Shown piece after piece: positions 22,622-42,592 of a stretch of DNA of 64,000 nucleotides. The position numbers and the translations under genes were made by a program. Source of the stretch: Minisyncoccota bacterium (GTDB lineage Bacteria; Patescibacteriota; Minisyncoccia; Phycocordibacterales; UBA6065); contig DASWWW010000003.1 in assembly GCA_036400935.1 (NCBI GenBank), forward strand, positions 35,716 to 99,715, read 5' to 3'. The notes under the pieces are model-generated. The model saw only the letters and a program-made list of their open reading frames with translations, ran no database searches and had not been told where the DNA came from. The first letter of the stretch is position 1; each line of letters begins with the position of its first letter.

Positions 22622-22649
22622 TTGACGAATAGGGCGCGATAAGTATACT
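22622..22649 (+). promoter_or_regulatory. Promoter of the 23S-5S rRNA unit.
   Basis: TTGACG, 16 nt, TATACT, then tacttctacctc. It is near-identical in -10 and downstream sequence to the 16S promoter at 40730. Confidence 0.5.
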
Positions 22650-23009
22650 TACTTCTACCTCCAAATGGTTATTAATTCTCATCTAGCGCGAACGAAATAA
22701 AGGCCATTCAGTTGGCTATATTACGTTTCGCTCGAGAGAGCGATTTCTTTTTTAAGGGGGTATGTTGTTTCTTCGACAATAGAACCCCACCGCATGAGTC
22801 TTTCGAGTCAGTCCTACAAGGGACCGATGAGATGGTCTTTTCAAGCATGCAGGTGACTGCAATGATCTATAGATGGTTATTGCAAAACCTACTTTTTTCC
22901 AGGAAAGAAAAAGTAGAACAGGTAAATTAAAGTATTGAATTTCTGTTCGTTGTAAGCGAACAGGGATCATTGAGAGAAATTAGTTTAGTGGTTTTTAAAT
23001 TTCCTAATA

Positions 23010-26000
23010 GGAAATTTAAGAGCATATGGTGGATGCCTAGGCTTCTGAGAAGCGATGAAGGACGTTGTGTAGCGACGATAATTTCGGGGAGCCGCTGAAC
23101 GGGCGTTAATCCGAAAGTTTCCGAATGAGGCAACTCCTCTCATAGAGATATGAGAGACATTCACGTTTAACGTGAATGAGCGCACCCTGGGAAGTAAAAC
23201 ATTTCAGTACCAGGAGGAAGAGAAAACAAAGTCCGCGTATTGCGGACACAATTACCTTAGTAGTGGCGAGCGAAAGGGTAAGAGCCCAAACTCGGTCTAA
23301 ATCGCGGGATGCGTCGAAAGACGTAGGACGCGATTTAGATCGGGGGTTGTAAGGTGATGACGTTCCTATTTATAGGGGAAGAAGTCAAAAAATATTTTGT
23401 TAGAGTAAGTCACTGGAAAGTGACGCCCCAGAGAGTGATAGCCTCGTGCTCGAAAATAAAATATCTTCTTTGTTGTCATTCTTGAGTACCTCAGGACACG
23501 AATAGCCTGAGGGAATCCGGCGGGACTAACCGCCAAGGCTAAATATTCCAGAAGACCGATAGTGAACTAGTACCGTGAGGGAAAGGTGAAAAGCATCCCG
23601 GAGAGGGAGGTGAAATAGAACTGAAACCATATGCTTACAAGGAGTGGGAGCGGACCCCGCAAGGGTGATCCGTCACCGCGTGCCTATTGAAGAATGAGCC
23701 AACGAGTTGATGCATGCTGCAAGGCTAAGGGCTTGAAAGCCCGGAGTCGTAGGGAAACCGAGTGTGAATAGCGCGACTAAGTAGTATGCATCAGACCCGA
23801 AGCCAGGTGAGCTTGCCATGTGCAGGTTGAACTCTGTCGAAAGACAGAGGAAGGACCGAACGCTAGAGACGTGCAATACTCTGCGATGACATGTGGTATG
23901 GAGTGATAAGCTCATCGAACCTGGTAATAGCTGGTTCTCTCCGAAATATGTTTAGGCATAGCGTCGTTTGTTCCCAAGGGGGGTAGAGCACTGGAAGATT
24001 CTGACAGGTCGAAAGATCGCAGAACCTATCAAACTCCGAATACCCTTGGTTAAAAGAACGGCAGTAAGTCCGTGGGGGCTAAGCTCCATAGGACAAAAGG
24101 GAAACAGCCCGAATCTCAATTTAAGGTCCCAAAATTTATGCTAAGTACTAGGGAGGTGGTGGATCTTCTTCGACGGTGAGGATGTTGGCTTAGAAGCAGC
24201 CATCATTTAAAGAAAGCGTAACAGCTCACTCACTTAGAGGGTCTGCGCCGCAGATGATCGGGGTTAAAGCATAATACCGAAACTGAGGATTGCATTTGTC
24301 TTCGGACAGATGCACTGGTAGGAGAGTATTCTACTCTGCGATGAAGGCAAAGGGGTGACCCATGCTGGAGCGTGTAGAAGTAAGAATGTTGGCACAAGTA
24401 ACCACAATGCGGATGAGAAATCCGCACGCCGAAAGATTAAGGTTTCCTTCGCAATGGACTTCAGCGAAGGGTTAGTCGGGCCTAAGGGGATGGCGAAAGC
24501 CGTACCTGATGGACACACGGTTAATATTCCGTGACTTACAGTTGGTGCGATGGCATGACGGAGCACAGTATATGTAGCCCCTTATTGGATTGGGGTCTTT
24601 GGTCAGAGGGCGGGTGCCAGGAAAATCCGGCGCCCAGTCGTTGAATCGACGAGCCTAAGGACAGGAGGGAAGCTCTAGCTTGCTAGAGGGAACTACATAA
24701 AGCGGGCTTTCAAGAAAAGTGTCTAAGCATAACCAACGGTAATCCGTACCGAAAACCGAAACAGGTGATCACGTCGAGAAGACGAAGGCGAACGAGTGAA
24801 GGTCCTCCAAGGAACTCGGCAAAAAATCAGCCGTAAGTTAGCGATAAGGCTTGCCCTCTATTTATTTAGAGGGCCGCAGCGAAAGTATGCCTGGCGACTG
24901 TTTATCAAAAACACAGCTCCCTGCGAACTCGTAAGAGGATGTATAGGGGGTGACACTTGACCAATGCCAGAAGGTCAACCATCGGCGGTGCGATTATATC
25001 AAGCTGACTGATGTAAGCCCTGGTGAATGTCGGCGGTAACTATAACCGTCCTAAGGTAGCGCAATTCCTTGTCAGGTAAGTTCTGACGCGTTGAATAGTG
25101 TAACGTCTGGGCAACTGTCTCGGAGGACAGCTCGGTGAAAATACAATCCCGGTGAAGATGCCGGGTACCTGCAGTTAGACGAAAAGACCCTAGAAGCTTT
25201 ACTACAGCTTGATATTGAGCATACGATTGCGATGCGTAGCGTAGCGGTGAGACTTTGAAGTGCGCTTTCGGGTAGCATGGAGTCGTCGATGAAACAGCCG
25301 TCTTCGTTGTTGTATGTTCTAACCCCAAGGGCAAAAACCATGGGAGACAGTATCTGGTGGGTAGTTTTAGTGGGGCGCTATCCTCCTAAAAAGTAACGGA
25401 GGAGCCTATTAAGGTCAGCTAGCCGCGAATGGAAACCGTGGCGATAGTGTATGGGCATAAGCTGGCTTAACTGTAAGACGTACTTGTCGAGCAGATACGA
25501 AAGTAGAGCTAAGTGAACCGACCTTTCGCATTAGATGCGGGGGAAGATTATCGGACAAAAGCTACTCTAGGGATAACAGGCTCGTTCCGCCTAAGAGTTC
25601 ATATCGACGGCGGAGTTCGGCACCTCGATGTCGGCTCGTCTTATCCTGGGGGTGGAGAAGCTCCCAAGGGTTTGGCTGTTCGCCAATTAAAAAGGCACGT
25701 GAGCTGGGTTCAGACCGTTTAGATCGTGACGCTCTCATAGAGAATGTCATGCGCTAGACAGTCTGAATCCCTCGGACATCAAGGACAAAACGAGACACAA
25801 CCAATCACGGCGGTCGCGAAGGGTAACTTTCGCGCACGTCATCAACTTATTTCGGTAAAATCCACGCATGGTATGACATGCTGGGACAATACCGAGGGAA
25901 TTTTTGTTATGTAAAAGTAGCAAGATGCCCGTAGAGACTAAACGTTGATCTCCTTAATAACAAAATAGTTAAGGATGAAGATATAGTCCATTCCTCACAG

Positions 26001-40729: not shown

Positions 40730-40757
40730 TTGACTCTTTTCCCGCCCTGAGTATACT
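40730..40757 (+). promoter_or_regulatory. Promoter of the stand-alone 16S rRNA gene.
   Basis: TTGACT, 16 nt, TATACT, then tgtacttacctc. It closely matches the 23S promoter at 22622 (shared -10 and downstream +1 region). Confidence 0.5.
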
Positions 40758-41099
40758 TGTACTTACCTCTGAAAAACTCAGGTTTGAGGAAAAAAGACTT
40801 CGAAAGATGTCCTTTTTCTTTAAGGGGGACGGCAACTGTCGGACTTTGAAATAATTATTGTTATATAAGATTGAGAACGTGCAGAAGAGAGACTGGTTCA
40901 AGTTTCTTTGAATGTACGAGTCCAAATCTTTGAGTATGTTGGATACTGCGATCGGGTCAAAATTCGGACCAAGAGCAGATAATAGGATTGTGGAGGCGGG
41001 AAAGCACCCGTGAATCTCCCAGAGCAAAATATGCAGCAGTTCATACTGTCGTCTATTTTGTTCCGTTCGCTTTGTGCGCTCTTCGGAGCTTCAAAGTTT

Positions 41100-42592
41100 A
41101 TATTAAGAGTTTGATCCTAGCTCAGGATGAACGCTGGCGGCGTGGATAAGTCATGCAAGTCAAGGGGGCCGCAAGGCAACCGGCAGACGAGGTAGTAATA
41201 AGTAGGTACGAAACCAAAAGTCATGAATAGCCCACCGAAAGGTGGGGTAATACATGATAGTCCCTCCGGGGTAAAGATTTATCGCTTTTGGATCGGCCTG
41301 CTCGGTATCAGCTAGTTGGTGAGGTAAAAGCTCACCAAGGCTATGACGCCTAGGGGACCTGAGAGGGTGACCCCCACCGATGGAACTGAGACACGGTCCA
41401 TACACCTACGGGTGGCTGCAGACGAGAATATTCGACAATGGACGAAAGTCTGATCGAGCGACGCCGCGTGCAGGATGAAGTCCTTCGGGACGTAAACTGC
41501 TTTTATTGGGGAGGAAGTTTATTGACGTTACCCATTGAATAAGAGGTTGCTAAACTCGTGCCAGCAGCAGCGGTAATACGAGTGCCTCAAGCGTTATCCG
41601 GAATCATTGGGCGTAAAGGATGTGTAGGTGGCCGCATTAGTCTTTTGTTAAATTTCCCGGCTTAACTGGGAACCTGCAGAAGAAACGGTGCGGCTAGAGG
41701 ATGCAAGGGGTCTGCGGAACTCATAGTGTAGCGGTGAAATGCGTTGATATTATGGGGAACACCAAAAGCGAAGGCAGCAGACTGGGGCACTCCTGACACT
41801 GAAACATGAAAGCGTGGGTAGCGAATGGGATTAGATACCCCAGTAGTCCACGCCCTAAACGATGACAACTAGCTATTTCGAGTATCGACCCTCGGAGTGG
41901 CGTAGCTAACGCGTTAAGTTGTCCGCCTGGGTAGTACGACCGCAAGGTTAAAACTCAAAGGAATAGACGGGGACTCGCACAAGCAGAGGATCATGTGGTT
42001 TAATTCGATGGTAAACGAAGAACCTTACCAGGGTTAGAAATGTAGCTGAAGACAAGCAGAAACGTTTGTCGCCGCAAGGCAGTTACACAGGTGCTGCATG
42101 GCCGTCGTCAGTTCGTGGTTTGAATTGTTCCCTTCAGTGGGGTAACGAACGCAACCCTCATTGCCTGTTACAAGTGTCAGGCGAGACTGCCCAGCTTTTT
42201 GAGCACAAATCGAAAGATTTGCGAGCAAGAAGCTGGGAGGAAGGTGAGGATGACGCCAGGTCAGCATGGCCCTCTGATACCCTGGGCTACACACGTGATA
42301 CAATGGTGCATACAACGCGACGCGACGAGGAAACTCTGAGCAAATCGTAATAAAGTGCACCCTAGTTCGGATAGGAGTCTGCAACTCGACTCCTTGAAGC
42401 TGGATTTGCTAGTAATCTCGGGTCAGCCATACCGAGGTGAATACGTTCTCGAGTCTTGTACTCACCGCCCGTCAACTCAAGGGAGTTGGGAGTGCCCGAA
42501 GTCTGCGCCTGTCGCGGCCTAAGGCAAGCTCAATGACAGGGAGTAAGTCGTAACAAGGCACGGGTAGCGGAAGCTGCTCGTGGATTATTTCA
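41100..42592 (+). rRNA. rrs: 16S ribosomal RNA, unlinked from 23S-5S. Its 3' tail lacks the anti-Shine-Dalgarno CCUCC.
   Basis: The 5' end is agagtttgatcctagctcaggatgaacgctggcggcg. Internal blocks gtgccagcagcagcggtaatac and gtcgtaacaagg are present. The 3' end reads ...ggaagctgctcgtggattatttc, where CACCUCCUU is expected. Confidence 0.9.

Follow-up and report, generated by a model that had tools for sequence, protein, structure and literature searches.

The rRNA (rrn) operons of Escherichia coli carry a leader with boxB, boxA and boxC elements, RNase III stems around both 16S and 23S, and a spacer that contains either tRNA-Ile and tRNA-Ala or tRNA-Glu. In Thermus/Deinococcus, Rickettsia, Helicobacter and the Planctomycetes the rRNA genes are split, with 16S located apart from 23S-5S. 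The clade list of Brewer et al. (bioRxiv 10.1101/705046) supports the split in these groups, and that work also describes unlinked rRNA genes as common and phylogenetically conserved, with Patescibacteria among the clades in which their proportion is high. The present analysis concerns the rRNA genes in a 64,000-nucleotide (nt) stretch of contig DASWWW010000003.1 from a Minisyncoccota bacterium (assembly GCA_036400935.1), referred to below as the window, in which a 23S-5S pair precedes a stand-alone 16S gene. Evidence at the level of sequence, together with comparison to related genomes, makes it very probable that the window carries two independent transcription units, pointing the same way and each with its own signals, for rRNA genes that are probably single-copy, in a layout that has been inherited.

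Similar to the split genes of Thermus/Deinococcus, Rickettsia, Helicobacter and the Planctomycetes, the window has stand-alone 16S and 23S-5S units with their own predicted promoters, usually present in those groups in one or a few copies. In contrast to the window, those groups generally show long distances, and an ftsW-secDF block is not known to lie next to their rRNA genes. The likeness to the E. coli rrn operons extends to a promoter of the consensus type, leaders of 16S and 23S in which a hairpin precedes a boxA-like element, long helices between leader and trailer, the predicted co-transcription of 23S and 5S, and a tRNA-Ile(GAU) gene located 3' of 16S. Unlike in E. coli, there would be no single 30S precursor, 23S-5S precedes 16S on the chromosome, each unit has one promoter-like site instead of tandem P1/P2 promoters, and the tRNA-Ile gene, with no tRNA-Ala nearby, has a separate promoter-like site and a separate terminator.

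The window also resembles the unlinked genes of Brewer et al. in that 16S and 23S are more than 1500 bp apart and the trait is phylogenetically conserved. While the mean separation given in that work is ~410 kb, the separation here is 6.5–15 kb with both units on the same strand. That work assigns genes as linked or unlinked by distance, and a permuted order, an intervening block, and promoters, leaders and helices for each unit are not described in the passages available from it.

Arrangement of the rRNA genes and their predicted promoters

The rRNA genes and an intron in 23S were called with Rfam at the gathering threshold, and all three rRNA genes in the window are full length, matching the Rfam models end to end (Table 1; coordinates throughout are positions in the window, on the + strand unless stated). 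The 16S gene begins 14,571 nt after the end of 5S and 14.8 kb after the end of 23S (26311 to 41099), a distance that exceeds the 1500 bp criterion for unlinked genes. The intervening sequence is mostly coding, with Pfam matches in 10 of the 12 open reading frames (ORFs). These results bear out a preliminary description of the window, which held 23S-5S and 16S to be unlinked, on the same strand and separated by ~14.5 kb of protein-coding genes, with 23S-5S first. That description also claimed that no spacer contains a tRNA, which is correct for the 108-nt spacer between 23S and 5S, but the tRNA-Ile(GAU) gene is found downstream of 16S.

The rRNAs and neighbouring proteins of the window were compared against 80 loci, labelled L001 onward, that were retrieved with the window SecD. 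All of these loci are from metagenome-assembled or uncultured genomes, the majority of which are named as Patescibacteria or candidate phyla radiation (CPR) lineages. The best matches to the window SecD (76% and 73% identity) are in Candidatus Parcubacteria/Paceibacterota genomes assembled from metagenomes, and the window is assigned to a Parcubacteria/Paceibacteria (CPR) bacterium.

Each unit is preceded by a predicted sigma-70-type promoter, and a promoter scan of the + strand gave no other 10/12 match immediately before either unit. TTGAC-N17-TATAMT, taken as the strict pattern, has four occurrences in the window against 0.03 expected from shuffles; two of the four sit 352 nt upstream of 23S and 341 nt upstream of 16S, while the other two (18728-18755 on the - strand and 46426-46453 on the + strand) are unrelated to rRNA. 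The sequence that follows the -10 hexamer reads TACTTCTACCTCC in the 23S-5S unit and TGTACTTACCTCT in the 16S unit. The preliminary description presented this as a common tactt(c/a)tacctc, which does not hold as written, as the part that is truly common is TACCTC, located 6 nt past the -10 hexamer in a probable start region. The flank AGTATACTT is also common to both rRNA promoters, and only these two promoters have both elements; TACCTC was not found after the consensus promoters at 18728-18755 (-) and 46426-46453 (+).

Comparison with the relatives indicates that the 16S promoter is conserved. Upstream of 16S, 32 of the 39 relatives show a strict TTGACN-16/17-TANANT match, against a calculated chance rate of ~0.007 per 650 nt, and in 29 of them the spacer measures 16 nt. 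The median 16S leader among relatives is ~300 nt, and past the -10 hexamer the relatives have a pyrimidine-rich A/C-C-S-Y-Y sequence (+8 to +12) and then a hairpin. Equivalent 23S promoters are found in L033, L036 and L039.

The leaders are also organized alike. They are ~350 nt long in the 23S-5S unit and ~340 nt long in the 16S unit, and both contain, in the same order, a hairpin, a U-run, the motif TTTAAGGGGG (AAGGGGG) and a boxA-like element to which NusB/S10 might bind. The order of hairpin and boxA resembles the boxB-boxA leader of the E. coli rrn operons. The 16S leaders of relatives have the pyrimidine-rich start within a 5'-end hairpin, often a U-run, and then a boxA-like CTTTGA(C/A)A element; 20 of 32 16S leaders carry the pattern [CT][ACT]TTGA[ACT]A[AGT], versus 0.075 expected per leader. 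Elements of the CTTTGA(C/A)A type are likewise present in two of four 23S leaders (TATTTTGAAAAC in L033 and GTCTTTGAAAAC in L036). The sequence CTTTAAGGGG was considered as boxA and rejected; it was found only in the window and L001, and the conserved element is the CTTTGA(C/A)A downstream of it.

These similarities are of architecture. The promoters had been described as near-identical, and while the hexamers, the 16-nt spacing and TACCTC are indeed common, the two promoters are not near-identical because their spacers agree at only 7 of 16 positions and the leaders align poorly overall. Furthermore, the hexamers and their spacing are the general strong-promoter consensus of the lineage. There is consequently a substantial possibility, which we put somewhat short of even, that the resemblance reflects a generic strong sigma-70 consensus and that no dedicated module coordinates 16S and 23S-5S. 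The strict pattern away from rRNA, the divergent spacers and leaders, and the presence in the 23S leaders of relatives of their own motif, ATATGTTRAT, which differs from the 16S leaders, would all be expected if this were the case. Points against it are the combination of AGTATACTT with TACCTC exactly 6 nt past the -10 hexamer, which is confined to the two rRNA promoters, and the hairpin, U-run, TTTAAGGGGG and boxA-like element that recur in the same order in both leaders.

Termination, processing and conservation of the order

Both units are predicted to end at their own intrinsic terminators, in agreement with the preliminary description, as the hairpins at 26545-26575 and 42764-42792 fold strongly and are each followed by a T-run. 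An automated terminator scan missed both on the + strand and direct folding confirmed both; our guess is that an upstream A-run pairs with the T-run and lengthens the stem. A further intrinsic terminator, that of the upstream DoxX gene, appears to insulate the 23S-5S unit from upstream transcription. Read-through, in which a boxA-modified polymerase passes the 5S terminator and the 14.6-kb block to produce one 23S-5S-16S transcript, is very unlikely because terminators are located before the 23S promoter and after 5S and because two genes in the block (28565-29722 and 39805-40632) are on the opposite strand. Although the three rRNA genes share their strand with 10 of the 12 intervening ORFs, and boxA-type antitermination complexes are generally known from the E. 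coli rrn operons to reduce termination, that antitermination acts mainly on Rho-dependent terminators, and the hairpin right after 5S is strong (-24.9 kcal/mol). Moreover, 16S comes with a separate consensus promoter, which is conserved among relatives (32 of 39), and with a separate leader/trailer helix. The separate transcription that had been proposed for the two units is thus supported by a consensus promoter, a terminator and bracket helices for each and by the opposite-strand genes between them.

The helices that bracket 23S and 16S were sought without gaps and scored against shuffles, and covariation was counted for 16S; the 5S helix was read directly from the sequence. An approach in which the whole leader was folded against the whole trailer was dropped, as the energies were no better than those of shuffles, long interior loops being allowed. 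The bracket helix of the window 23S scores 23 versus a shuffle maximum of 15, and 23S helices of 22–48 bp with differing sequences are present in L019, L033, L036, L039 and L069, and in these 6 genomes the 23S helix scores above all shuffles. In the 16S helix the core (TTTTGTTCCGT/ACGGAACAAAA) is conserved, while the outer part varies. Counted over 11 genomes, 89% of the cells in this helix are paired versus 42–52% in slid controls, compensatory change is seen in 15 of 29 pairs, and none of 500 shuffles reaches the observed values. The 16S helices covary and are therefore under selection, and the leader and trailer of 16S must be on one transcript. A distance of 6 nt separates the end of the 3' strand from the terminator stem, which suggests that the whole 16S precursor is one self-contained transcript. 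CPR bacteria are reported to retain RNase III (PMC12641178), which is the likely processing enzyme at the bracket helices.

Based on these features, the first transcript would run from the 23S-5S promoter through the leader, 23S, the 108-nt spacer and 5S to the terminator, and the intron at position 2593 of 23S would have to be spliced out. The second would run from the 16S promoter through the leader, 16S and a trailer of ~170 nt to its own terminator. Each rRNA would then be excised from its own precursor by means of its own leader/trailer helix, probably by RNase III. The balance between the subunits would come not from co-transcription but from promoters of matched strength, with a common TACCTC start region and common leader elements.

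Table 1. Features of the two rRNA units and their surroundings in the window
Feature	Position	Strand	Remarks
Intrinsic terminator of upstream DoxX gene	22475-22511	+	17-pair stem with 12 G-C pairs, then T-run
23S-5S promoter, sigma-70-type (predicted)	22622-22649	+	TTGACG-16-TATACT; 10/12 match
TACCTC, probable start region of 23S-5S unit	22656-22661	+	6 nt past the -10 hexamer
Leader motif TTTAAGGGGG (23S)	22750-22759	+	after hairpin and U-run
boxA-like element TGTTTCTTCGACAAT in 23S leader	22766-22780	+	candidate NusB/S10 antitermination site
23S bracket helix, 5' strand	22988-23012	+	pairs with 26299-26323
23S rRNA gene	23002-26311	+	Rfam RF02541, 2316 bits, model 1-2925 of 2925; alignment to E. 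coli rrlB; interrupted by one intron
Group I intron, ORF-less, 299 nt	25719-26017	+	RF00028, 57.9 bits versus gathering score of 50
23S bracket helix, 3' strand	26299-26323	+	
5S bracket helix, 13 bp	26407-26419 with 26527-26539	+	TTGAGCTCTCTGT versus ACAGAGAGTTCAA; 12 Watson-Crick pairs and 1 G-U
5S rRNA gene	26420-26527	+	Rfam RF00001, 70.5 bits
23S-5S intrinsic terminator	26545-26575	+	-24.9 kcal/mol, z = -4.9, then UUUUUC
Intervening block	26602-40632	mixed	12 ORFs and tRNA-Leu(CAG)
tRNA-Leu(CAG)	37176-37258		within intervening block
16S promoter, sigma-70-type (predicted)	40730-40757	+	TTGACT-16-TATACT; 10/12 match
TACCTC, probable start region of 16S unit	40764-40769	+	same offset, 6 nt past the -10 hexamer; 5' arm region of leader-start hairpin
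Leader motif TTTAAGGGGG (16S)	40819-40828	+	common with 23S leader
boxA-like element GGACTTTGAAATAAT in 16S leader	40841-40855	+	
16S bracket helix, 5' strand	41043-41068	+	pairs with 42732-42757; 26 bp; likely RNase III substrate
16S rRNA gene	41099-42595	+	Rfam, 1357 bits, model 1-1533 of 1533
16S bracket helix, 3' strand	42732-42757	+	just before terminator
16S intrinsic terminator	42764-42792	+	-18.2 kcal/mol, z = -3.9, then UUUUCUUCU
tRNA-Ile(GAU)	43433-43506	+	838 nt downstream of 16S; Rfam and tRNA calls

The order of the genes is conserved among the relatives. Its 5' part consists of (hyp209, MscS-like), 23S-5S, hyp256, FtsW, GT4 (-), a sugar transferase and (epimerase), and its 3' part of SecD and SecF, then a stretch that varies, followed by 16S, tRNA-Ile and pyruvate kinase. 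The 23S/5S genes are directly upstream of hyp256-ftsW in 38 of 39 testable loci, and 16S is downstream of secF in 36 of 48 loci. Both rRNA units are held in 19 loci, with a gap of 6.5–15 kb between 5S/23S and 16S, and no 16S was found upstream of 23S in any relative with sequence there. The order is shared by many Paceibacteria lineages, and the layout appears to be inherited rather than recent.

This conservation also bears on whether the window genes could be redundant or partial copies, with a working linked 16S-23S-5S operon elsewhere in the genome. Such an operon would be located beyond the 64 kb examined, and a further rRNA copy could be present there; a working linked operon is nevertheless improbable in the extreme, as all three genes match full Rfam models, the processing helices covary and so are under selection, conservation of the layout extends to 19 other genomes and relatives with sequence upstream of 23S have no 16S there. 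The uninterrupted assembly through both rRNA loci would also argue against repeats. Weakest of all is a chimeric join at conserved rRNA sequence, for although breaks and mis-joins at rRNA genes are frequent in metagenome assemblies and many related contigs end inside rRNA genes, misassembly of the 26.5–41.1 kb region, a concern raised in the preliminary description, can be set aside because a second assembly, Logan contig SRR11449181_54605 (14,690 bp, seen in 12 samples), matches window 26445-41134 at 100% identity, from inside 5S to 36 nt inside 16S, and the same order and flanking genes recur in the 19 loci, which are from unrelated studies.

Several points weigh against two inherited units with matched signals, in addition to the possible further rRNA copy. 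The boxA-like element of the window 23S leader (TTCTTCGACAA) is degenerate and departs from the CTTTGA core of the 16S leaders. The strict promoter pattern is present upstream of 23S in only four of the six genomes with enough sequence, with none in L019 and L069. In addition, 12 of 48 relatives have no 16S within 6–9 kb downstream of secF, and the layout is consequently not universal in the class. Finally, promoter use, the transcription start, the efficiency of termination and the processing sites are all predictions from sequence.

Individual relatives depart from the common arrangement in other ways. L042 has a 5S gene upstream of hyp256 (3839-3945), but the preceding 3.8 kb contain no 23S, and in L058 both syntenic positions are without an rRNA gene. 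A tRNA-Asn(GTT) gene is located in the 23S-5S spacer of L033 (L033:4949-5019), where the window has none. In L060, three tRNA-like genes (L060:1886-2196) are found inside 23S (L060:583-4626), called by ARAGORN as Asn(att), Phe(gaa) and Lys(ttt) with Rfam scores of 49.6–61.4 bits. The insertion that contains them falls between positions 1296 and 1316 of the window 23S, roughly E. coli 1170–1190 by offset, which we take to be the helix-45 intervening-sequence site. The arrangement is suggestive of a 23S that is fragmented around a gap containing the tRNAs.

The intervening block, the 23S intron and the 16S 3' end

The block between 5S and 16S begins with hyp256, FtsW/RodA, GT4 (28565-29722, -), a sugar transferase, an epimerase, a hypothetical protein, SecD and SecF, and continues with a G8/beta-helix protein, tRNA-Leu, a trypsin-like protease, an APH-type kinase and Lnb_N (39805-40632, -). 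Neither hyp256 nor hyp124 nor the hypothetical ORF at 32087-32797 had a match in Pfam or NCBIfam. The hyp256 gene (26602-27372) is the first gene past the 5S terminator in nearly all relatives, and FtsW/RodA is always next. The protein has a hydrophobic N-terminal stretch, as judged by eye, that could be a membrane anchor.

A group I intron interrupts the window 23S directly after the equivalent of E. coli position 2593, as seen from the 299-nt insertion in a MAFFT alignment against rrlB. The 5' exon ends ...GACCGU (U) and the intron ends ...AAGAAG (G). Removal of the intron gives an exon that reads GACCGUCGUGAGACAG versus GAACGUCGUGAGACAG in E. coli, so the exon is intact and the intron is predicted to be spliced out of 23S. 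An insertion at 2593 is present in ~20 of 24 relatives, based on blastn block coordinates, while L013, L036, L045 and L065 are contiguous there. The Cr.LSU / I-CreI intron of the Chlamydomonas chloroplast is located at the same site; the window intron has no homing endonuclease ORF. The window intron is similar to the CPR introns at 2593 described by Tsurumaki et al. (2024, PMC11270868) in its site, its match to a group I model and its lack of an ORF, and that work identifies 2593 as a recurrent CPR 23S insertion site with ORF-less copies. Relative to E. coli, the window 23S also has an 86-nt insertion in domain I (23312-23397, near E. coli position 289) and smaller insertions near E. coli 227 and 1500, none of which is matched by an intron model.

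The 3' end of 16S (42582-42595) reads GGATTATTTCAAGTG and lacks the CCUCC anti-Shine-Dalgarno (anti-SD) sequence, as is also the case in 11 relatives. GGAGG is found upstream of none of 44 window ORFs, and 4-mer SD cores occur at or below background. Loss of the anti-SD motif has been reported in a subgroup of Parcubacteria that overlaps the group lacking uL1 (PMC9297842). In the window, rplJ (L10) and rplL (L7/L12) stand alone at 18954-19840, with a YceI-like gene and an S41 peptidase gene upstream rather than rplK-rplA. This setting is compatible with an overlap of the anti-SD-less and uL1-less lineages and is no proof of it. The intron, the 16S 3' end without CCUCC and the tRNA-Ile(GAU) gene downstream of 16S are absent from the preliminary description, and the first two have already been published for CPR.

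Several ORFs have a -10-like hexamer 5–13 nt before the start codon (for example 6774 -, 57432 -, 29722 -, 29781 + and 40632 -), and TGCTAAAAT is found just upstream of the two possible hyp256 start codons (ATG at 26602 and 26611; window 26593-26613). These positions are suggestive of leaderless or near-leaderless mRNAs, which would fit the missing anti-SD sequence. A strict test found a -10 hexamer before the start in 4 of 47 ORFs versus a background of 1%, a number too small to draw a conclusion.

The two strict promoter matches away from rRNA have features of their own. In the region 18447-18953, the perfect consensus TTGACA-16-TATACT at 18728-18755 (-) points into a ~250-nt stretch whose only ORF is short, very basic and 58 aa long (MLTPMAKKSFARNTS...). 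An Rfam E-value search of 18300-18800, downstream of this orphan promoter, returned nothing credible, and the stretch could contain an unannotated small RNA or encode a small protein. The site at 46426-46453 (+), TTGACA-16-TATAAT, is followed by a 5' untranslated region of ~120 nt with a 13-bp hairpin (CTCGATATGAGCC...GGCTCATATCGAG) and then by an ORF without a Pfam match. The region 46426-46580 could be a cis-regulatory leader.

Possible origin and significance of the layout

The tRNA gene downstream of 16S offers a clue to the origin of the order. tRNA-Ile(GAU) is the classic spacer tRNA between 16S and 23S. A separate promoter-like site (43292-43320) and a separate terminator (43505-43544) accompany it in the window, and no tRNA-Ala(UGC) gene was found near it. 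Among relatives with enough sequence, tRNA-Ile(GAU) is located 0.7–2 kb downstream of 16S in all eight (L002, L009, L033, L036, L039, L041, L053 and L073). It is probably a relic of an ancestral 16S-23S spacer tRNA, as its retention downstream of 16S would fit descent from a 16S-tRNAIle-(tRNAAla)-23S-5S operon. The permuted order could have arisen by tandem duplication of the operon and an adjacent block followed by reciprocal loss, or by local translocation.

A broader proposal is that the order records a single ancient rearrangement, for which duplication with reciprocal loss is one possible route, that marks a large subclade of Paceibacteria lacking the anti-SD sequence and reportedly uL1, with the layout maintained by selection and the two units balanced by matched promoter/leader modules. 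We offer this tentatively and lean toward its being incorrect in at least some part. If it is true, selection keeps both rRNA units in one chromosomal neighbourhood and the units are balanced without co-transcription.

Published work on this group already covers unlinked rRNA genes, introns in rRNA and the absence of the anti-SD sequence through loss, and current understanding is not overturned by the present results. What is added is the conserved permuted synteny together with a map of the promoters, leaders and processing elements. In the searchable literature, in which subscription journals are thinly covered, no description was found of a class-wide permuted order with an ftsW-secDF block or of leaders and helices for each unit.

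The layout has practical consequences for the study of CPR/Paceibacteria, as methods that amplify or bin across 16S, the internal transcribed spacer and 23S will fail. The two genes can still be linked on a single contig or long read of 10–20 kb, since they are 6.5–15 kb apart in a predictable order with ftsW/secDF as markers, and this linkage helps to tie 16S surveys to metagenome-assembled genomes. The locus also provides a clean natural case in which the balance of the ribosomal subunits would be kept without co-transcription, and the parts that may maintain this balance, namely the matched promoters, the common start region, the boxA-like leaders and the separate processing helices, are now mapped and testable.

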